Source of the DNA: Candidatus Tenderia sp.
GTDB lineage: Bacteria > Pseudomonadota > Gammaproteobacteria > Tenderiales > Tenderiaceae
Length of the DNA: 64,000 bases
Assembly (NCBI GenBank): GCA_031416075.1
Contig: JANOSY010000031.1
Span: 19,138 to 83,137, forward strand
Direction of reading: 5' to 3'
Part shown: piece by piece, positions 42,377-59,544 of the stretch
Numbering within the stretch: position 1 is the first letter of the stretch
How the letters are laid out: each line of letters starts with the position of its first letter
Program-made: the position numbers and the translations under genes
Notes under the pieces: generated by a model
Database searches by the model: none
Told to the model about the DNA's origin: nothing
Seen by the model: the letters and a program-made list of their open reading frames with translations, nothing else

Positions 42377-42728
42377 TTAATCGCCACTGCTCTCAACCTT
42401 AACCCCATCCGGTACATGCAGTGTGGTCGTTGGAAACGCCACCTCAGCGCCATGACTGGCGATAATATCGTGAATCTGCAACAAAATACGGTGTTTAATC
42501 TCGTGGAACTCGGTCCACTCAGTAGTACGGGTAAAGGTGTAGATAAAAAAGTCGAGCGACGACGGCCCAAAGCTGTTGAAGTTCACCATCAGGGTCTGCT
42601 GCTGATCTAAGCACGCGCTTCTGAATAAAGTTCACCAACAGCGTCAGAAACACCACCACAAATACCTGGATAGTCCAACCGCCCCAGCCGAGGTATTGAT
42701 CAAGTCCCGTGGTTATCTGCTCTAACAA
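42377..42728 (-). pseudogene. Mechanosensitive channel (MscS-family) remnant with a large internal deletion and frame change
   Basis: ORF 42519-42728 gives an MscS-like N-terminal TM (WTIQVFVVVFLTLLVNFIQKRVL). ORF 42377-42589, in another frame, gives the MscS C-terminal domain (VNFNSFGPSSLDFFIYTF...EVAFPTTTLHV). About 200 aa of channel core is absent. Confidence 0.7.
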
Positions 42729-42762
42729 AACCCGCTATCTCCTTATTTTCAGAGGAGAGATT

Positions 42763-43842
42763 CTACAACAGATCAACCGGCTTCGCCTCCAGCCATGGCC
42801 CTAACGCATGCAGCGCCTGGTGCCACTGCGGGTCATTGTGCAGCTGATCACGGGTAATTGGATGGCGGCCGTGCATACGTGCGAGACGCAGATGTGAGGC
42901 GGGAGAGCCTGCCCCGCGAGCCGAGCGAGTGCATTGGGCATTATCAAATTTTTTGAGGTGATCCAGCGTCCGGCAGATGGCGTTAAAGTCGCTACAAACC
43001 AACGCCATATCGCACCCTGCTGTCAGCGCGGCGGCGGCTCGCTCGCAAACATCGCCAGCAACGGCGGCCCCCTCCATCAACAGGTCATCGCTGAAAATCA
43101 CCCCCTGAAACTGCAACTGTTGGCGCAGAATCTGCTGCAACCAGAAACGTGAAAATCCAGCCGGTTTGTCATCCACCTGCGGATAGATCACATGGGCCGC
43201 CATCACCCCGGCCAAGCCGTTGTGGATCAGCCGTTCAAACGGGATCAGGTCTTCACTCTCGATATCGACCAGTCGGCGTTCATCGCGGGCGATGCCGAGA
43301 TGGGTGTCGACCTCCACCGCGCCGTGGCCGGGAAAGTGTTTGGCGGTGGCGGCCATGCCGGCCCGCTGCATCCCTTTAATGTAGCTCTGGGTCAGCTCCG
43401 CCACCGCCTGTGGATCACGATGAAAAGAGCGATCGCCAATCACCGTGCTGACGCCATAATCGAGATCAACCACCGGCGCAAAGCTGAAATCGACACCCAC
43501 AGCGCGCAGCTCCACCGCCATCAACCAACCGGCTGTTTCGCAATTACGTTTGGCCCGTTTAGAATCTTGATCATAGAGTTGGCCAAAGTTACGCACCGCT
43601 GGCAAACGGGTAAAATCGCTGCGAAAACGCTGCACCCGACCGCCTTCATGGTCCACCGCCACCAGCAGCTTAGGTTGCCGCAGTGCATGAACTTCATCAA
43701 TCAACGCCTTGACCTGTAGGGCATTTTCAAAGTTACGACTAAAGAGGATCACCGCCCCCACCATCGGGTGTTGCAGCATCTCGCGCTCTTCCGCAGTCAG
43801 GGTCAAACCCGACAGCCCCACCATGACTGGACCTAACGACAT
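42763..43842 (-). CDS. nagZ: Beta-N-acetylhexosaminidase NagZ
   Basis: 359 aa. GH3 motifs AVDHEGGRVQRF and KHFPGHG. Confidence 0.9.
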   Translation of the reverse strand: MSLGPVMVGLSGLTLTAEEREMLQHPMVGAVILFSRNFENALQVKALIDEVHALRQPKLLVAVDHEGGRVQRFRSDFTRLPAVRNFGQLYDQDSKRAKRNCETAGWLMAVELRAVGVDFSFAPVVDLDYGVSTVIGDRSFHRDPQAVAELTQSYIKGMQRAGMAATAKHFPGHGAVEVDTHLGIARDERRLVDIESEDLIPFERLIHNGLAGVMAAHVIYPQVDDKPAGFSRFWLQQILRQQLQFQGVIFSDDLLMEGAAVAGDVCERAAAALTAGCDMALVCSDFNAICRTLDHLKKFDNAQCTRSARGAGSPASHLRLARMHGRHPITRDQLHNDPQWHQALHALGPWLEAKPVDLL

Positions 43843-43844
43843 AT

Positions 43845-44660
43845 CTATTCCCGTGGTCTCGTTCTTACATCGAGGCGATCACGCAGCCGATCACCCAACA
43901 GATTCACCGCCAGCACCACCAGCATCAACGCCGCCCCCGGCACCAGCACCATGTGTGGCGCTACCAGCAGATAGCGGGCGCCGTCGCGGATCATACTGCC
44001 CCATGAGGAGTCGGGCGGCTGCACACCCAGACCCAGGAACGAGAGCCCCGCCTCGGAGATCACCGCACCGGCCACCGCAAAGGTCGCCTCCACAATCAGC
44101 GGCGCCATGATCAACGGGATGATGTGACGCCAGATGATCATCAGCGGTCGTGTGCCCAGCGCCTGGGCCGCCTGCACATGTTCGCGATGTTTGATGGTCA
44201 GCACCTGGGCGCGCGCCAGCCGCGCAAAGCCGACCCACCCCACCACACCCAACGCGATGATGACGTTGTTGATGCCCGGCCCGAGCAGCCCGGCCAGCGC
44301 GATGGCCAGCAGAATGCCGGGGAAGGCGAGGAAGATATCGATAATGCGTACGATAACGTGGTCCCACCAGCCGCCCAGGTAGGCGCTGACAGCACCAATG
44401 GCCGTACCAACAACGGTCGAGATCAACACTACCAACACCGCCACCAGAAACGAGGTCTGCGCCCCGGCCACCAGCCGATCCCACAGCGGCCGCCCCAGAT
44501 CATCGTAACCGAGCCAGGCGTCACTGCCCGGCGCCAGCAGAATCTTCGACAGTTCGATGTGGTTTGGGTCAAGCCCAAACCAACCACCGCCCACGGCAAA
44601 CAGCGCCCAGAGCAGCATGATCGCCGCTGGCCAGCCGTAACGAATCACACTACGGATCAT
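43845..44660 (-). CDS. Peptide/nickel-type ABC transporter permease (DppC/OppC-like)
   Basis: Start moved to ATG 44660 (MIRSVIRYGW), with an ATGA overlap on the upstream permease. Carries an EAA-loop-type sequence. Confidence 0.85.
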   Translation of the reverse strand: MIRSVIRYGWPAAIMLLWALFAVGGGWFGLDPNHIELSKILLAPGSDAWLGYDDLGRPLWDRLVAGAQTSFLVAVLVVLISTVVGTAIGAVSAYLGGWWDHVIVRIIDIFLAFPGILLAIALAGLLGPGINNVIIALGVVGWVGFARLARAQVLTIKHREHVQAAQALGTRPLMIIWRHIIPLIMAPLIVEATFAVAGAVISEAGLSFLGLGVQPPDSSWGSMIRDGARYLLVAPHMVLVPGAALMLVVLAVNLLGDRLRDRLDVRTRPRE

Positions 44661-45586
44661 CGCCCGCCCTCCAGCCGCACGCGCGGATCGAGCCAGCCGT
44701 AGACCAGATCGGTCAATGTATTGACCACCACATAGGCGAGACTGATCAACAAGACACACGCCTGCACCACCGGATAGTCGCGGCGCTGGATTGATTCAAT
44801 CGTCAATGAACCAAGCCCCGGCCAGGAGAACACAACCTCAGTAATCACCGCACCACCCAGCAGCACACCCAGCTGCAAGCCGAGCAGCGTGATCACCGGC
44901 AGCAGCGCATTGCGCAGCGCGTGACGCCAGATTACCAACCGCTCACTCAACCCCTTGGCACGGGCGGTACGGATGTAATCCTCATTCAACGTCTCCAGCA
45001 CGGTGGCGCGCACCATGCGCGACAGGATCGACGACATCGCCGTGCCGAGGGTGATGGCAGGCAGAATCAACGAGATCAGGCCATCGCGACCGCTCACCGG
45101 AAACCACCCCAGCCACAACGAAAAGACCAGGATCAAAATCGGCCCCATCAGAAAATTGGGCACCGATATACCCACCAGCGACAGCCCCATCGCCCCCTGA
45201 TCCCAGGGTGTGTCCTTACGCACCGCCGCCAACACCCCCATCGGGAAGGCGATCAGCACCGCCACCAACAGCGATGCCAGCGCCAACTCCACCGTTGCCG
45301 GCATACGCTCCAGCAACATCTCGCTGATGGGGCGTTGTGAATAGAGTGAGTTGCCCAGATTGAGATGCAGCAGATTGTTGTAATAGTTACCCATCTGCGT
45401 CAGCAGTGGCTGATCCAGCCCAAGTGCACGGCGCAGCGCCTCGCGGTCGGCAGGCTGCGCCGACTCCCCGAGCATCACCTCCACCGGATCGCCGGGCACC
45501 ATATATAAGAATAGGAATACCAATGCCGAAACGCCCATCACAACGATGAGGGCGCTGGCAATACGGGAGAGGAGGAATTTCAACAT
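44657..45586 (-). CDS. Peptide/nickel-type ABC transporter permease (DppB/OppB-like)
   Basis: 309 aa, MLKFLLSRIASALIVVMGVSALVFL..., with DYIRTARAKGL typical of DppB. Confidence 0.85.
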   Translation of the reverse strand: MLKFLLSRIASALIVVMGVSALVFLFLYMVPGDPVEVMLGESAQPADREALRRALGLDQPLLTQMGNYYNNLLHLNLGNSLYSQRPISEMLLERMPATVELALASLLVAVLIAFPMGVLAAVRKDTPWDQGAMGLSLVGISVPNFLMGPILILVFSLWLGWFPVSGRDGLISLILPAITLGTAMSSILSRMVRATVLETLNEDYIRTARAKGLSERLVIWRHALRNALLPVITLLGLQLGVLLGGAVITEVVFSWPGLGSLTIESIQRRDYPVVQACVLLISLAYVVVNTLTDLVYGWLDPRVRLEGGR

Positions 45587-45592
45587 TAATCT

Positions 45593-46156
45593 CTACTGTT
45601 CCGTCAACTTCTGGGCGATCTTATCCAAGTAGATACGAGGGTGATTTTTTAACCGAAAAATGGGGATACTACCAGGATTTAAAGTGGGCTTTGGTAACTC
45701 GGGTCGCGATGTCTCACCTTTTCGCTCCTGCTTACGAGGTTTGAAGCTGATAACACCACAAAATTCTGGCTCGATTGCACAATGGCCATTAAGACTCAGC
45801 AGTTTTACCAGCCATTGCATAAAAGCATGGCTTCTTAAAATTTGTTTTTCAGCACCGTTTTCACCTCCCGATTTCATTTCAATCATGATTATAATAGGTT
45901 TGCTATTGATATCCGCCACAACAATAGCATCACATACACTGTGCATTCCCTTAAGCGGGGTATCGTTACGCATGAACGGAAAAGCATTCGGTCCCAACTG
46001 ATCTAACGAAAATACCAGAGATTTTCCTCCCTGTATCTCAATCAAGGTATGTGTAGCACCTTTACCAGACTCTCTCAGTTGCCAGCGCCCGTCTGACCGA
46101 GGAAGTTTCCAATTATTGGTGATTAGATTATCAAAGCATGCCACAAAGTTGCTCAC
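45593..46156 (-). CDS. Hypothetical 187-aa protein with a PD-(D/E)xK-like motif (candidate nuclease effector)
   Basis: GTG start overlaps the ATPase stop (GTGA). CDAIVVAD...IIMIEMKSG gives D76/D82...E93-x-K95. The C-terminal tail is basic and Pro-rich. Low GC. Confidence 0.5.
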   Translation of the reverse strand: MSNFVACFDNLITNNWKLPRSDGRWQLRESGKGATHTLIEIQGGKSLVFSLDQLGPNAFPFMRNDTPLKGMHSVCDAIVVADINSKPIIIMIEMKSGGENGAEKQILRSHAFMQWLVKLLSLNGHCAIEPEFCGVISFKPRKQERKGETSRPELPKPTLNPGSIPIFRLKNHPRIYLDKIAQKLTEQ

Positions 46157-47574
46157 TGAGAACTCTCCTCAGAATCAGATTCTCCGCGATATGAATAATA
46201 AATTTCATCACTGGTCTCATTAAGGTCATGGATCACCTTGTCGAATGTTTCAGCCTGGATGCCCTCTTCTTTAGTTATTTTCATGGAAGATATTTTCCGA
46301 TCATCAAAAAGATAAGCTGCCACTTTATCTGGCTGGAGCACCTCAGTTTCTTGATAATCGAAGCGTTTCATCAACTTGTCTCTGTTCCTATTTGGTTGTG
46401 ACAACATAATCAATGAATTAATTTCTCTGACCAAATAATCACTGTGCGTACTCACCACTACACGTAAACCACTGTTTACTAACTTGGCGAGTAATCTTGC
46501 CAGCTTGCGCTGATTTCCTGGGTGGAGATTAAGTTCCGGCTCATCAATCATAAGCACATCACCTGACTTAGCCTGATGCTCTAGATAAAACCACAAACCA
46601 AACAAACTTTTAACGGTGGAGGAAGACAGATGCAAGTCCAATCTTTGAGGATCGCCACCTTTCAGTTTTTTTGGGGTAAAATAAATATTTCCGTCAGCAT
46701 CGACCTCGTATTTTCCGCAGACAACTTTTTTGACCTCTTCAGCCAAAGCATGAAATTGACCACCTTTTCTTTTTCTTGTATCAGGGATCTCATTCAGCCA
46801 ATCAATATAGTGAGCAATAGGCTCTGCATATCGAGAACCCCATACATCACGAATAAGTGCACTTATCTCAAACTCTTTGTCTTTTTTGGTGGCATGATGT
46901 AGCAAAGCAGTGCGTCTATTAGCCAATTCTTTATAAAAAAGATGCAACCCATTCCTCTCAGCAGGCATCAAAAATACGCTTCGACGCGAAGTCACACCAA
47001 TCAAATGACTGACAACTGCATCACATAATATAAATTCAATATCAGGGAATCTTTGGGCACGGAGTGTTATTTGAACAGTTCTATCATTTGGCTGCTTTAC
47101 TAATCTCAATACCTCGTTTTTTTCCAAACCAAGAACCAAACTAAAGTCCATTTTCCGTTCGATAGCTGACGAGACAAGATGTTCCTCTTCAATTAGCCAG
47201 TCAAAATGGCTGTGAGAAAAAAGAGTTTTCGGAGCATTAAATATCCTTGGGAGACGATGTTTTGTCGCATTATGTATAGATTCAAGTATTTTCTTCGAAT
47301 ATTGTTTCAGCCAAGCCTCCATGTCCCACGACACTTGCCCCTCCTTCATTAAATCCTCAATGAGTGATTCGGTCTCTGGCAGATGCCCAAGAGGAGTCGA
47401 TGAAAGGAAGCCATACAGAGCATACATAACCCATGTTTTGCCAGTATTATTCGGGCCACAAACAATCGTCAAAGGCTTGAAATCGATATTTTGCCCACTC
47501 TCAAGGCATCCAAGACGTGAAGCGCTAAATTTCCAGCTTTGAAGATTAAATATTGCTTGTTCATCTGTACTCAT
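46153..47574 (-). CDS. AAA_15/AAA_21-type ABC ATPase (defence-system-like)
   Basis: ATG 47574 behind a GGAGAA SD. Walker A CGPNNTGKT, signature-like LSSSTVKS, Walker B VLMIDEPELNLHP, H-loop VVSTHS. About 40% GC against about 60% in the flanks. Confidence 0.75.
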   Translation of the reverse strand: MSTDEQAIFNLQSWKFSASRLGCLESGQNIDFKPLTIVCGPNNTGKTWVMYALYGFLSSTPLGHLPETESLIEDLMKEGQVSWDMEAWLKQYSKKILESIHNATKHRLPRIFNAPKTLFSHSHFDWLIEEEHLVSSAIERKMDFSLVLGLEKNEVLRLVKQPNDRTVQITLRAQRFPDIEFILCDAVVSHLIGVTSRRSVFLMPAERNGLHLFYKELANRRTALLHHATKKDKEFEISALIRDVWGSRYAEPIAHYIDWLNEIPDTRKRKGGQFHALAEEVKKVVCGKYEVDADGNIYFTPKKLKGGDPQRLDLHLSSSTVKSLFGLWFYLEHQAKSGDVLMIDEPELNLHPGNQRKLARLLAKLVNSGLRVVVSTHSDYLVREINSLIMLSQPNRNRDKLMKRFDYQETEVLQPDKVAAYLFDDRKISSMKITKEEGIQAETFDKVIHDLNETSDEIYYSYRGESDSEESSQ

Positions 47575-47641
47575 AACAAGTTCTCCAATCAATAATTTTT
47601 AATTCTATGCCATAACATACAATTCAATTCATATGAATTAA

Positions 47642-48139
47642 TTACTCATGAATCAGTACCCGTGTACCGGCCGGTACACGATCAAACAGCTCGATCAATT
47701 CACTATTGCGCATGCGAATACAGCCGTGCGAACCGGGACGGCCCATCTCCACGCTATCGGGTGTGCCGTGAATATAGATGTAACGGCGCATGGTATCAAC
47801 GTTGCCAAGACGATTACAGCCCGGCTCCAGACCACTGAGCCAGAGGATGCGGGTGAGTATCCAGTCACGCTTGGGATGCTGTTGATGCAGCTCTGGAGTG
47901 TAGGTCTCGCCGGTAGGGCGACGGCCAACAAAGATCGTATTCACCTCACAACCACCACCAATCCTGGCACGGATCTGGTGCCAACCGCGTGGGGTGCACT
48001 GGCTGTTGGCCACTTCGCCAGGACCATTTTTGGCGCTGGAGATCAATACGTCCATCAATAGCCCACCACCACACAACAGCTGCAACCGTTGCGTGGTGAG
48101 GTTGATATCAATCAGATATTGATCAGTGGCGTGTGACAT
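47642..48139 (-). CDS. L,D-transpeptidase (YkuD) family protein without an obvious signal peptide
   Basis: 165 aa. Catalytic motif HGTPDSVEMGRPGSHGCIRMRN. The N-terminus MSHATDQYLIDINL is not signal-like. Confidence 0.8.
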   Translation of the reverse strand: MSHATDQYLIDINLTTQRLQLLCGGGLLMDVLISSAKNGPGEVANSQCTPRGWHQIRARIGGGCEVNTIFVGRRPTGETYTPELHQQHPKRDWILTRILWLSGLEPGCNRLGNVDTMRRYIYIHGTPDSVEMGRPGSHGCIRMRNSELIELFDRVPAGTRVLIHE

Positions 48140-49619
48140 GCATCAATCCATCGTAGTTGCCATCGCGGGCAACCGTATAGCCGCTGATATTTTTGCGGGC
48201 GGCAAAGATGTGATCTTCGTACCACAACGGCACGTAAGGGAGCTGTTCTAACAGACGCGCCTGAACTTTTTTGTACTCTTCAGCCTGCTGTTCCAGCGTT
48301 GGTGCCGCTTCGGCCGCTTCAATTAAAGCATCGGTGATGCTGTCGCTGTAGCGGCCACGATTACTCCCCTCCGGCGGCACAGCACTGCTGTGAAAGGCGT
48401 AACGGAAGATGTCAGGGGTCTTAATGCCAACCCAGCTGAGGCTGAACATCTGGAAGCGCCCTGCTTTGATGTCACCATAAAAGGTACCCCAGTCATAACT
48501 GCGCAGATCAACATCAATTCCTATGTCGGTGAGCTGTTGTTGAATGATGGTGGCGAGGCGAATGCGGAACGGATCGCTGGAGGTTTTGTAGACCAGATGG
48601 GGACGTTTGTCTTGTGTATAGCCTGCCTCTTTTAACAACAGGCGGGCACGCGCTGGATCGTAGCCATAGAGCGGCAGTTTGATGCCCGCCCAGTGGTCGG
48701 GCGGTAACAGTGCGCTGGCAGGCGTGGCGGCGCCGCCCATCACGTAACGGATAATGGCGTCGCGGTCGAGTGCATGGGCTATGGCCTGACGCAGCTTTAA
48801 ATTATCCGTCTCTGCATCTTCAAGATTGAACCCTAGATAGGTGAAGTTGGAACCGCGCCCCTTGATCACCTGAATGACATCCTGTTTTTCCAGATAGGTG
48901 ACCATCTCTGACGGGATGTCATTCTGCAACATGTCGATCTCACCACGCATTAGCTTGAGCACTCGCACGGTGGGGTTCTCCACCGCGATAAAACTGAAGC
49001 GCTGACTATCGGCTAGACGTTTGAGGTGCAGCGTGCCCTCCTCTGGCCAAGCGTCAAAGGCAAATGGACCGCTGCCCAACGGCTGTTGGTTGAAGGGGTG
49101 TTTTGCATTAAGCGCGGCAGCGGGCATGATGCCAATCACCAGGCGGCCGGGGAAGAGCAGGTCCGGTTTGTTAAGCATGAAATCGACCGTGTTGTTATCC
49201 ACCACCTGAATGGTGTCGACCATGTCGAATCCGGCACGGTGAGGTGAGTTGATGGCGGGGTCAAGAATGGAGTCGTAAGTGGCTTTGATGTCCGCCGCTG
49301 TCAGCGGGCTGCCATCGTGAAACGTGGCGCTGTCGCGCAGCTGGAAACGGTAGTGGCGCGGCGAAATCTGCTGCCACTGCGCCAGTGCCGGGATGACACG
49401 ATAGCGCTCATCAAAATCGATCAAACTCTGATAGATCAGCCGGTTGATACGCGACGAAACGGCATCGGTGGCAAAACGTGGATCAAGGGTGATGGGCGCT
49501 TTTGCGAGGCCAAAACGCAACGCGCCATCCGGCGCCTTGCTGCATGCGGTGATACCCAACAGCGCCAGCAGCAGCGCCAGAATTGTGAAGCGCGAAAGTT
49601 TCAGAGCGAATCCTTCCAC
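48123..49619 (-). CDS. ABC transporter substrate-binding lipoprotein, family 5 (peptide/nickel, MppA/DppA-like)
   Basis: 498 aa. Lipobox LLGITAC and family-5 SBP features. Confidence 0.85.
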   Translation of the reverse strand: MEGFALKLSRFTILALLLALLGITACSKAPDGALRFGLAKAPITLDPRFATDAVSSRINRLIYQSLIDFDERYRVIPALAQWQQISPRHYRFQLRDSATFHDGSPLTAADIKATYDSILDPAINSPHRAGFDMVDTIQVVDNNTVDFMLNKPDLLFPGRLVIGIMPAAALNAKHPFNQQPLGSGPFAFDAWPEEGTLHLKRLADSQRFSFIAVENPTVRVLKLMRGEIDMLQNDIPSEMVTYLEKQDVIQVIKGRGSNFTYLGFNLEDAETDNLKLRQAIAHALDRDAIIRYVMGGAATPASALLPPDHWAGIKLPLYGYDPARARLLLKEAGYTQDKRPHLVYKTSSDPFRIRLATIIQQQLTDIGIDVDLRSYDWGTFYGDIKAGRFQMFSLSWVGIKTPDIFRYAFHSSAVPPEGSNRGRYSDSITDALIEAAEAAPTLEQQAEEYKKVQARLLEQLPYVPLWYEDHIFAARKNISGYTVARDGNYDGLMHVTRH

Positions 49620-50169: not shown

Positions 50170-51168
50170 ATGAAAGCGATATTAATGACCGGACCCGGAA
50201 CACCTGACGTATTAAGACTGAGAGAGGTGGCAATTCCAGAGATCACTCATCGCAACGATATTCTGGTCCAGCTTAAGGCTGCGGGTGTCAACCCTGTTGA
50301 TACCAAATTACGCAGCCGTGGCACTTATCACCCCGACCGTCTGCCCACCATTCTTGGCTGTGATGGTGCCGGCATTGTTGAGGCCATTGGCCGGGATGTA
50401 TCCCGGTTCAAGGTGGGTGATGAGGTCTATTTCTGTAATGGCGGTATCGGTGGCCATCCGGGCAACTATGCGGAATATGCCGTCGTTAACGAACACTTTG
50501 CTGCCGCCAAACCACACTCAATCAGCTTTGCCGAAGCGGCCGCCGCGCCGTTGGTGCTTATCACCGCCTGGGAGAGTCTGTTTAACGCCTGTGAACTGGA
50601 AGAGGAAGACAGTGTGCTGATTCACGCCGGGGCGGGCGGCGTCGGCCATGTTGCCATTCAATTGGCCAAAGCCGCCGGTGGTTTTGTCTGTACCACCGTC
50701 AGCAACACGGACAAAGCAGCGTTTGTCTCTGACCTGGGCGCTGACAAGGTCATTCAGTATCGGGATGAGGATTTTGTTAAGGCCATACACTCATGGACCG
50801 GCGGTGAAGGGGTTGATCTTGCACTGGATAGCATTGGTGGTGAGACACTCAACCGCACCTTCGAAGCCGTCCGCTTTTATGGCGACATCGTTACCTTGCT
50901 GCAACCTGATACCAACATCCGTTGGCATATCCCGCGCCTGCGTAACCAGCGCCTGGCCTTTGAGTTGATGTTGACACCGATGCAGCACGGCCTGTTTGAG
51001 ATGCAGAAACACCACGGCAAAATACTCACCGAAAGTGCCAACCTGTTTGACGCAAAAAAATTAAAAATTCATGTTAGCCATACCCTGCCACTGGCTGACG
51101 CTGCAGAGGCCCATCGCCTGATTGAAAAGGGGAAAACAACCGGTAAAGTAGTATTAATAATGGATTAA
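50170..51168 (+). CDS. Zinc-type alcohol dehydrogenase-like / NADPH:quinone oxidoreductase
   Basis: 332 aa. MDR family with the HAGAGGVGHVAIQLAK nucleotide-binding motif. Confidence 0.8.
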   Translation: MKAILMTGPGTPDVLRLREVAIPEITHRNDILVQLKAAGVNPVDTKLRSRGTYHPDRLPTILGCDGAGIVEAIGRDVSRFKVGDEVYFCNGGIGGHPGNYAEYAVVNEHFAAAKPHSISFAEAAAAPLVLITAWESLFNACELEEEDSVLIHAGAGGVGHVAIQLAKAAGGFVCTTVSNTDKAAFVSDLGADKVIQYRDEDFVKAIHSWTGGEGVDLALDSIGGETLNRTFEAVRFYGDIVTLLQPDTNIRWHIPRLRNQRLAFELMLTPMQHGLFEMQKHHGKILTESANLFDAKKLKIHVSHTLPLADAAEAHRLIEKGKTTGKVVLIMD

Positions 51169-51375
51169 AAACTATTCAAAAAGACTAAATACCCCATATA
51201 AATCAATATATTACACTTAATAATTAGATAACAAATAGTCTATTTTCATGTGCTTAGCAGAGTTTCCTAGACATGAAATATCGAGCTATGGTATCTAAAC
51301 AGTCCAGCAGAAAAACAATAGCTGTGAAACACAATAACAACACTGTAATAACCAATAAAAAAGGGGAATAAACAG

Positions 51376-52629
51376 ATGAATAAGTCTGCAATAGGGATGT
51401 TGATATTTGGCTCAGCTTTATCTGTTGGCACATATGCTGACAGTGACATAGGAGAAGGACATGTGCACGCCGGAGCCTCAACAGAATTAGATCACCACAC
51501 CATGCACGATCTGCTCTCTGATAAAACCTGGGAGTTTTACGGAATGCTTTATGCCTCATTGCAAAGCAGCGATGCGGGCAATGCACTCGACCACGGCGGC
51601 AACAGCTCCCAGACCAACCTCTGGCTCTCTACCGGGGAGACAACCCTGGGGTTTAAAGGGTCAGTACCTCTGGATAACGGCCTTCAGGCCATCTGGCAGA
51701 TCGAGTCCACTATTAATCTCGATGAGTTTGGCGAGGCCGCAGGCCATGCCCACGGTGATCAACCCGCAGGCTACAACAGCAGCAAGCTGGCCGGTGGCCA
51801 CAACAGCTTCATCGGTTTAAGCGGTAACTGGGGCATACTGCTGGCGGGTAAACATAACACGCCATTTTTTGACGCCACCATTCAATTCGACCTCTTCCAC
51901 CACATACCCGGTGACGTACGTGCCATGTTAGGCCGACTGCCTAACGTGGAGAGTGGTTCTGGCGACCACCATGGCGGCACATTTAACGTCTCGGCATCAG
52001 ATACCATCATGTACAAATCGCCAAAACTGGCCAGTGGCCTTTCGTTTGAGGGGGCAATTTTTGCCCTGAACGAAACATTGGTGGATGACAATCAAGCTGA
52101 CCCTTCCGCCTTTGGTTTGGGTGCCCGTTGGCAGCAGAAGACATTTGCACTGGTGGCTGCCTACGAACAGCACAAAAACTACGACTCGTATAACCACGAT
52201 GGACGTGGTGCCACGCCATCACTCCCGATTGATAAAACAACGGGGCTTATTGTGGGTGGCATGATGCACTTCAACGATAACAATACGATGGTCGGGGCGT
52301 TTTTTGAGCAGCTGGATACAAGCTCATCATCACCCTCCGTTCCTAACCTGAGTCGTGATGGTTATTACGTCAATCTTCAACAACGTTTCATGGGCAAAAA
52401 CAAGCTCAAACTGGCCTTGTCTGAAGCCGACGCCTTTCAGATAAGGGATGGCGCACAGATGGTGGCTATAGCGCTGGCCAGAGAGCTGGGAGCATCAACT
52501 GAGATATATGCCACTTATGCCAAAACCAATAATAAGCAGTTTGCCAGTTACAACAATGGCACCGCTGGTCCTTTAGGAAAAGGTGGCGATCCACAGACAC
52601 TTGCAATTGGCATTGTGCATAAGTTCTAA
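51376..52629 (+). CDS. Outer-membrane porin (general Gram-negative porin type)
   Basis: 417 aa. Signal peptide MNKSAIGMLIFGSALSVGTYA and C-terminal ...AIGIVHKF. Has His-rich loops. Confidence 0.75.
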   Translation: MNKSAIGMLIFGSALSVGTYADSDIGEGHVHAGASTELDHHTMHDLLSDKTWEFYGMLYASLQSSDAGNALDHGGNSSQTNLWLSTGETTLGFKGSVPLDNGLQAIWQIESTINLDEFGEAAGHAHGDQPAGYNSSKLAGGHNSFIGLSGNWGILLAGKHNTPFFDATIQFDLFHHIPGDVRAMLGRLPNVESGSGDHHGGTFNVSASDTIMYKSPKLASGLSFEGAIFALNETLVDDNQADPSAFGLGARWQQKTFALVAAYEQHKNYDSYNHDGRGATPSLPIDKTTGLIVGGMMHFNDNNTMVGAFFEQLDTSSSSPSVPNLSRDGYYVNLQQRFMGKNKLKLALSEADAFQIRDGAQMVAIALARELGASTEIYATYAKTNNKQFASYNNGTAGPLGKGGDPQTLAIGIVHKF

Positions 52630-59243: not shown

Positions 59244-59373
59244 TCAATGCGGGAAGCCGGAATTTTTAACACTCACCCATACAAGATTGGCCAAGATCGG
59301 CCAAACCCCTCACCACCGGCAAAATTCAGGCACATATAGACACCAGCAACAGCAATCGCTAACATACGCCCCG

Positions 59374-59480
59374 TCATTGGGGAGTAGCCGCCTTTCTATA
59401 TTGAAGGGGCTGACGTCAACACACTTGGCCCTCACGGCCATGGCGTCAACAGAACATTTCCTGGCAAGACCTTTGACCAT
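59374..59480 (+). promoter_or_regulatory. yybP-ykoY (manganese) riboswitch
   Basis: Hallmark blocks TTGGGGAGTAGCCGCC ... GTCAACAC ... GGCGTCAACAGAACATTTCCTGGCAAGACCTTTGACC. The P1 halves TTGG/CCTT flank GGGGAGUAG and GCAAGACC. It lies in the 5' leader of a GDT1/UPF0016 gene. Confidence 0.75.
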
Positions 59481-59544
59481 ACCACCCTTGCATTGGCCGG
59501 GGGGGAGTATGGTCATTGGAATTAAACCGGCCAGGAGCTCTAAT

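Follow-up and report, generated by a model that had tools for sequence, protein, structure and literature searches.

A very probable PD-T4-4-family defence cassette set within a housekeeping operon of Candidatus Tenderia

In a stretch of Candidatus Tenderia sp. DNA (64,000 nucleotides of contig JANOSY010000031.1, hereafter the window), a low-GC block at 45587–47641 carrying two genes, here A and B, separates a YkuD-domain gene from the first of two ATP-binding cassette (ABC) permease genes. This block is very probably a horizontally acquired ATPase-plus-nuclease defence cassette of the PD-T4-4 family, an identity that we assign because both A and B match the corresponding PADLOC models and because the PD-T4-4_B model is likewise matched by 108 of 108 collected relatives of B. 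An earlier interpretation made from the letters of the DNA (the sequence-only reading) had already seen an anti-phage defence family here, which the model matches bear out; its further suggestion of an uncharacterised system, possibly a new ATPase-plus-nuclease pairing, falls, given that the pair scores as the named PD-T4-4. The gene pair is a diverged new copy of this named and validated family and no new type of system. PD-T4-4 was recovered by functional selection of E. coli DNA against phage T4, was labelled ‘ATPase, nuclease’, and was validated (Vassallo et al. 2022, PMC9519451).

Gene A encodes an ABC ATPase of 473 amino acids (aa). Its product matches PADLOC PD-T4-4_A (PDLC04033) at E = 3.8e-124 and 413 bits, with residues 21–467 aligned to positions 2–457 of the 460 in the profile; on the same model the E. 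coli homologue P0094, 52% identical to A over 469 aa, scores 375 bits. Thousands of relatives are present in the protein database. Pfam assigns A to AAA_15 (1.1e-24) and AAA_21 (6.4e-18), the layout that had been read from the sequence, and the motifs quoted at the time—CGPNNTGKT, LSSSTVKS, VLMIDEPELNLHP, and VVSTHS—are all found, with their key residues invariant in 61 homologues (G40, N42, N43, K46, T47; S318, S319, S323; D344, E345, P346, E347; S375, T376, H377, S378). The large insertion between Walker A and the signature is also there, at a length of ~270 aa and not the ~290 aa first given. In the list of open reading frames (ORFs) the gene runs from 46153 to a TTG at 47592; the likely start is the ATG at 47574, because it stands behind a GGAG and because the same 473-aa product is in the protein database. 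The AlphaFold model of A is a confident one (predicted local distance difference test, pLDDT, 84.7) and has 162 PDB neighbours at E ≤ 1e-3, PtuA from Septu and retron complexes ranking first, followed by Rad50/SMC heads and the OLD nuclease. A is therefore placed in the defence-associated (OLD/PtuA) branch of ABC ATPases; its first insert is large, and its nucleotide-binding motifs are all intact.

Gene B, which starts with GTG and encodes 187 aa, has the same orientation as A and overlaps it by 4 nt (GTGA at 46153–46156, as noted from the letters), and through this overlap it is translationally coupled to A. It matches PADLOC PD-T4-4_B (PDLC04037) at E = 3.7e-10 and 37.9 bits, residues 3–152 aligning with positions 4–159 of 190, and is 33% identical over 184 aa (E = 5e-29) to the E. 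coli partner protein, for which the same model returns 55.5 bits. A word-indexed search retrieved seven relatives of B, as against 434 at E ≤ 1e-3 in a profile search of 1.84 billion representatives. In Pfam, B has no match at E ≤ 1, whether to HNH, TOPRIM, DUF4435, or RloB, in keeping with the earlier remark that the usual partner-domain motifs could not be seen in it, and no Pfam nuclease family was matched by any of its 108 relatives.

Across these 108 sequences E93, K95, and Q105 of B are invariant and D52 and D76 are conserved in at least 90%; in a 49-sequence set, D76 and Q105 are invariant. From the residues first proposed for alanine mutants, D76, E93, and K95 are thereby retained, D82 drops out (D/D/L/L/V/V/Y across the alignment), and D52 and Q105, absent from that list, join them. 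In the confident structural model of B (pLDDT 86.3; predicted template modelling score, pTM, 0.86), D76 opens strand 77–83, E93-x-K95 ends the hairpin partner strand 86–95, and Q105 lies in the next long helix. PD-(D/E)xK sites typically show such a strand-hairpin-helix arrangement, and the model suggests that D76...E93-x-K95, together with D52 and Q105, occupy the positions expected in a nuclease of that kind. The weak fold matches of B are mostly to restriction-fold nucleases (DdmD nuclease domain, McrC, BamHI, Nt.BspD6I, FokI, PaqCI, MUS81, FAN1, VRR-NUC, Mrr, ERCC4), which is suggestive, not proof of the fold; a profile search of PDB sequences with B found nothing. The pairing of an ATPase with a small D...ExK protein, as originally described, agrees with Pfam, PADLOC, conservation, and models alike.

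The two genes occur together across distant lineages: in each of the 18 other loci examined (L001–L014, L095–L098), several of them in defence neighbourhoods, A immediately precedes B. Even for distant members of the B family (22–29% identity), the partner ATPases, then 379–401 aa long, still score best on PD-T4-4_A. The E. coli P0094 locus occupies the variable site of a P2 prophage, where the replication and portal genes flank it, beside a retron module; the gene after P0094 encodes 190 aa and overlaps it by 8 nt, and the pair scores as PD-T4-4 on the same PADLOC models. In the P2 hotspot of L002 (5245–9999), a PD-T4-4-type pair adjoins a retron reverse transcriptase and an ATPase matching PADLOC ‘ATPase-Toprim_I-B’. 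Elsewhere the pair adjoins a HEC-01 pair (L005 4778–8564; 673 and 235 bits on the HEC-01 models), occurs as two tandem ATPase-plus-B pairs around a methyltransferase (MTase) gene near SIR2 (L097 1–5600), or is nested, with overlapping ends, between genes for a 1,101-aa MTase and a 1,045-aa ResIII protein (L098 266–8701). More distant relatives of A are carried by Vibrio phages and by plasmids, either small or conjugative. These neighbourhoods are typical of defence genes.

The composition of the block sets it apart from its surroundings. Over its 2,055 bp the GC content is 0.405 (about 40% had been estimated by hand), compared with a mean of 0.528 (standard deviation 0.028, minimum 0.464) for other segments of this length in the window; with z = -4.5, it is the lowest among all of them. 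In 300-nt steps, GC ranges from 0.37 to 0.44 within the block and from 0.53 to 0.66 in the flanks, and GC at third codon positions is 0.36 in A and 0.41 in B, compared with 0.56–0.76 in nine host genes. The borders are as first described: on one side the block begins at the stop of the YkuD gene (47642), and on the other the TAG stop of gene B (45593–45595) is followed by 6 nt, AGATTA, and then by the ATG of permease 1 at 45586. No integrase or transposase ORF is listed between 40 and 53 kb, and the only two tRNAs of the window lie at 1.7 and 9.2 kb, away from the block, which agrees with the earlier statement that such genes do not mark the borders. No flanking direct repeats were found there, and a search of the borders for target-site duplications, inverted repeats, terminators, and promoters returned nothing beyond chance. 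The AT-rich spacer between YkuD and A holds no detectable consensus promoter or terminator; it does contain a perfect 14-bp palindrome, AATTCATATGAATT, which occurs nowhere else in the window (not one of 100 shuffles yields a match), is missing upstream of A at nine other loci, and is possibly an operator or a relic of the junction. A second, short low-GC stretch at 50950–51550 (0.33–0.41 in 300-nt steps) covers an intergenic region and the 5′ end of a 417-aa ORF; the latter may be an outer-membrane protein gene, and the stretch is probably a promoter or leader region, not foreign DNA.

The host operon (42763–49619) encodes a substrate-binding protein (SBP), the YkuD-domain protein, two permeases, and NagZ, has no ABC ATPase gene of its own, and looks like a cluster for uptake or recycling of cell-wall peptides. 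Many gamma- and betaproteobacterial genomes share this order; in many others, NagZ comes immediately after YkuD. Among the 80 genomes with a YkuD orthologue, 12 have an empty site, with YkuD directly followed by permease 1 at a distance of 0–55 bp; these relatives are distant, their YkuD proteins being 58–70% identical and the best YkuD match in the species-representative genome set, which contains no close relative of the host, standing at 70%. In one closer relative, a contig of a metagenome-assembled genome (MAG; L001), the cassette occupies the identical position, and the 6-nt spacing is kept. Because its composition is foreign and the site is empty in relatives, we regard the cassette as horizontally acquired; among relatives that share the operon order, YkuD adjoins permease 1. 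In L001, the ATG of permease 1 reads ATA (1294–1350), the start must move to the next TTG or beyond, and the start set by the gene caller lies 45 nt downstream, which hints that the insertion disturbed the translation start region of permease 1. Three further contigs with an SBP-YkuD locus of proteobacterial type (L021, L066, and L070) are labelled as Halobacteria archaeon and Streptomycetaceae MAGs and are probably mis-binned.

Comparison with L001 also bears on how the cassette may have reached this position. Nucleotide identity is 90.6% over 4,163 bp and 79.3% beyond, dropping at ~42.9 kb, and synonymous divergence (dS) rises from 0.17 in A and B to 0.34 in permease 1 and 0.43–0.44 in permease 2 and nagZ, reaching 0.76–2.2 in CCP, DsrE, and Hpt beyond nagZ (values above 1 being saturated). 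This gradient suggests that homologous recombination between diverged relatives moved the cassette together with part of the neighbouring operon DNA. Arrival and spread at the site would most likely have proceeded by this route via the flanking operon genes, and such recombination would account for spread without mobility genes.

The junction of YkuD and permease is occupied in other genomes as well: seven distant relatives carry inserts of 0.9–4.5 kb (Table 1), and an eighth has 245 bp only. Their GC lies within 8 points of that of the flanks, and their large ORFs, judged only by eye from the translations, show MinD/ParA-like P-loop N-termini (L053, L087) or, in others, signal-peptide-like N-termini. 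As these ORFs do not, by eye, look defence-like and their GC is near that of the flanks, we rejected the idea of the junction as a defence hotspot. Because the cassette has neither a terminator nor a recognisable promoter of its own and ends 6 nt before the permease start, co-transcription with the muropeptide-uptake/recycling-like operon (SBP-YkuD-permeases-NagZ) was considered; we judge it improbable. If true, it would tie expression of the defence to signals of cell-wall turnover.

Table 1 Position of the cassette, its motifs, its flanks, and related features (window coordinates unless a relative is named)
Feature	Position	Strand	Basis or remark
Low-GC foreign block with two-gene cassette	45587–47641	-	GC z = -4.5; junction 0–55 bp in relatives
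Gene A, PD-T4-4_A-type ABC ATPase, 473 aa	46153–47574	-	PADLOC, Pfam, homology, fold
Walker A GPNNTGKT, A residues 40–47	47434–47457	-	Read from sequence
ABC signature SSSTVKS (from S318), Walker B/D-loop MIDEPELNLHP (D344, E345), H-loop STHS (H377)	46444–46623	-	Sequence
Gene B, PD-T4-4_B-type small effector, 187 aa, GTG start	45593–46156	-	PADLOC, homology, model
Putative PD-(D/E)xK core of B: D76 (45929–45931), E93-M-K95 (45872–45880)	45872–45931	-	Conservation and model
D52 of B	46001–46003	-	Outside the core span 45872–45931
Q105 of B	45842–45844	-	Outside the core span 45872–45931
AT-rich 67-nt spacer 5′ of gene A	47575–47641	-	Sequence; contains the 14-bp palindrome
Perfect 14-bp palindrome AATTCATATGAATT	47626–47639		In spacer, two bases past the YkuD stop
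Host YkuD-domain gene, upstream flank	47642–48139	-	ORF; orthologues in 80 genomes
Host ABC permease 1, downstream flank	44657–45586	-	ORF; 96% aa identity to L001
Similarity tract with L001 (cassette, permease 1, permease 2, nagZ)	42723–46885	-	Against L001 1–4127; upper bound is the L001 contig end
Other junction insert, L015	1774–5685		
Other junction insert, L019	6480–8457		
Other junction insert, L023	6474–10972		
Other junction insert, L027	2973–4571		
Other junction insert, L036	701–1580		
Other junction insert, L053	6492–7749		
Other junction insert, L087	633–1901		

Elsewhere in the window, a manganese (yybP-ykoY) riboswitch was detected at 59367–59541 on the plus strand (98.7 bits).

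Several readings other than a working defence cassette were weighed, and all are unlikely. An operon that has a binding protein and two permeases, with no ATPase gene, invites the thought that A, an ABC ATPase by its motifs, is the missing nucleotide-binding subunit of this transporter and that the block is native to the operon. We find this scarcely credible: transporter ATPase models match only ~40–55 residues of A around Walker B, at 13–30 bits against cut-offs of 190–670 (the best, cbiO, giving 30 bits against 211.8), A has its ~270-aa insert and a fold like that of PtuA, Rad50, and OLD, the empty-site relatives with the same operon likewise have no ATPase gene there, the block is foreign in composition, and the same pair occurs in prophages and restriction-modification loci with no transporter nearby. 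It might instead be a decaying, non-functional remnant of a defence system, given that no consensus promoter of its own was detected and that B evolves fast; relative to L001 (730–1293) it changes about five times faster than A at the protein level (84% versus 97% aa identity) at equal dS. However, both ORFs are intact and of full length against the family profiles, all catalytic residues are kept, and neither gene reaches a dN/dS of 1 against L001 (0.09 for A; 0.48 [0.25–0.87] for B), indicating purifying selection on each, which makes decay a most unlikely explanation. Slightly less remote, yet still very doubtful, is an addiction module in the manner of toxin-antitoxin systems, in which B would be the toxin, A its neutraliser, and stabilisation of the cassette and its host operon the main effect. 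The overlapping two-gene operon, the retention of the cassette at a shared position in two diverged genomes without mobility genes, and the toxicity of overproduced WonB, the effector of the related WonAB system of V. cholerae (PMC12137116), would fit such a module; yet WonB toxicity needs WonA with an active ATPase, excluding simple sequestration (PMC12137116), EcPD-T4-4 was selected and validated as a phage defence (PMC9519451), and the neighbours of the family are defence genes.

How a PD-T4-4 cassette of this kind would act can be sketched from published work on E. coli PD-T4-4 and on WonAB, from which the following steps are inferred. A dimer of A would hold and control B in a complex and sense a phage cue, ATP binding or hydrolysis by A would license B, and the nuclease activity of B would stop the infection. 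We tentatively propose, at somewhat less than even confidence, that it would do so by abortive infection, through cleavage of RNA needed for translation rather than bulk degradation of DNA. WonAB acts by abortive infection, shutting down translation and leaving genomic DNA intact, and depends on both its ATPase motifs and the lysine of the nuclease; toxicity of WonB is seen only alongside active WonA, and Lon degrades the protein (PMC12137116). EcPD-T4-4 forms higher-order complexes, and the purified system cut none of 11 DNA substrates, a result that its authors tentatively put down to the lack of a viral cue or to RNA being the target (10.1101/2025.07.10.664194). Less probable, but far from negligible, is that PD-T4-4 confers direct immunity, in which recognition by A, dependent on ATP, would be followed by cutting of phage DNA (or of replication intermediates) by B, and the infected cell would survive. 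The PD-(D/E)xK fold is classically that of a DNase, the weak structural matches of B act on DNA (BamHI, FokI, Nt.BspD6I, McrC, DdmD), several loci of the family are nested with MTase and ResIII genes, and 7 of 11 nuclease-motif systems gave direct immunity in the set of Vassallo et al. (PMC9519451), a figure for the whole set. Against cleavage of DNA stand the uncut substrates of EcPD-T4-4, the intact genomic DNA under WonAB, and reports of other ABC-ATPase-coupled effectors (OLD; PrrC/RloC) as tRNases.

Other points weigh against our account as a whole or in its parts, in addition to the direct immunity seen in that set. The RNA target and the abortive step are extrapolated from WonAB and from the negative DNA-cleavage result. 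The score of B on the PD-T4-4_B model is modest, and its nuclease fold, with no Pfam family matched by the 108 members, rests on the placement of motifs and on weak structural matches: the list of Foldseek neighbours is rich in restriction endonucleases, but none reaches E ≤ 1e-3, the best being 0.053 in PDB and 0.0065 in BFVD. Homology to E. coli was shown with the P2-prophage copies, not with the ECOR58 reference RCO57999.1/RCO57988.1; neither accession is among those listed for the E. coli clusters. A 2026 preprint, in its introduction, names PD-T4-4 alongside Septu among systems with an HNH nuclease (10.64898/2026.07.10.737580). Three other sources describe the effector as PD-(D/E)xK (PMC10952713, PMC12137116, 10.1101/2025.07.10.664194), a review among them placing PD-T4-4 under PD(D/E)XK and P-loop NTPase domains (PMC10952713), and an HNH label is not supported by our searches, in which neither B nor any of its 108 relatives had an HNH match. 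The recombination argument draws on one comparator contig, which ends inside gene A, and no phage phenotype is on record for this copy or its host.

These findings add an uncultured lineage of Gammaproteobacteria to the range of PD-T4-4, with proteins 52% (A) and 33% (B) identical to their E. coli counterparts, and provide a clean example of a defence cassette sitting in a housekeeping operon without mobility genes. Beyond annotation, the significance of what is an ordinary defence cassette is small; a diverged orthologue could serve as comparative material on the target of the PD-T4-4 effector, and no new question is opened.

Set beside known systems, A belongs with the AAA_15/AAA_21 branch of ABC ATPases that also serves OLD, Gabija (GajA), PARIS (AriAB), AbiL, and HEC-01. 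These differ from the cassette in having effectors of their own—TOPRIM, DUF4435, RloB, or DUF4276, fused or separate—none of which is found in A or B at E ≤ 1; the cassette is flanked by YkuD and permease genes, not by TOPRIM or DUF4435 genes, and the ATPase models of these systems cover only the Walker B and signature region of A. On the HEC-01A model, A reaches only E = 3.3e-11, compared with 673 bits for the ATPase of a true HEC-01 pair. Closer in structure is Septu (PtuAB, including retron-associated PtuAB), with which the cassette shares the logic of an ATPase plus a nuclease and to whose PtuA chains A is matched (9e91, 8eea, 8sux, and 9nnh; E 4e-8 to 2e-7). Its partner, however, is not the HNH protein PtuB, B having no Pfam match and its 108 relatives no nuclease family, and the scores of A on the PtuA models of PADLOC and NCBIfam fall far under that on PD-T4-4_A.

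WonAB (WonA, AWB73975.1; WonB, AWB73976.1), from the WASA-1 prophage of V. cholerae, likewise combines an ABC ATPase sensor with a variant PD-(D/E)xK effector and resembles PD-T4-4 according to its authors, who modelled PD-T4-4_A/B beside WonAB and the ‘OLD-ABC ATPase + novel REase’ operon (PMC12137116), the last being that of Krishnan et al. 2020 as cited there. An abortive phenotype with blocked translation is known for WonAB alone, and its link to the present cassette runs through that publication, not through a sequence alignment. From PD-T4-4 itself the cassette differs in its setting, inside a housekeeping operon of a gammaproteobacterium-like chromosome without mobile-element genes, whereas an ICE-like element carries the reference copy of ECOR58 (PMC9519451) and P2 prophages carry the E. 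coli copies seen here, and also in the strong divergence of B and in being a copy known from its sequence alone. In architecture the two are alike: both consist of two co-oriented, overlapping genes, an ABC ATPase of ~470 aa followed by a nuclease-motif protein of ~190 aa, and the cassette spans ~1.98 kb, compared with 1,973 bp for the reference ORFs.

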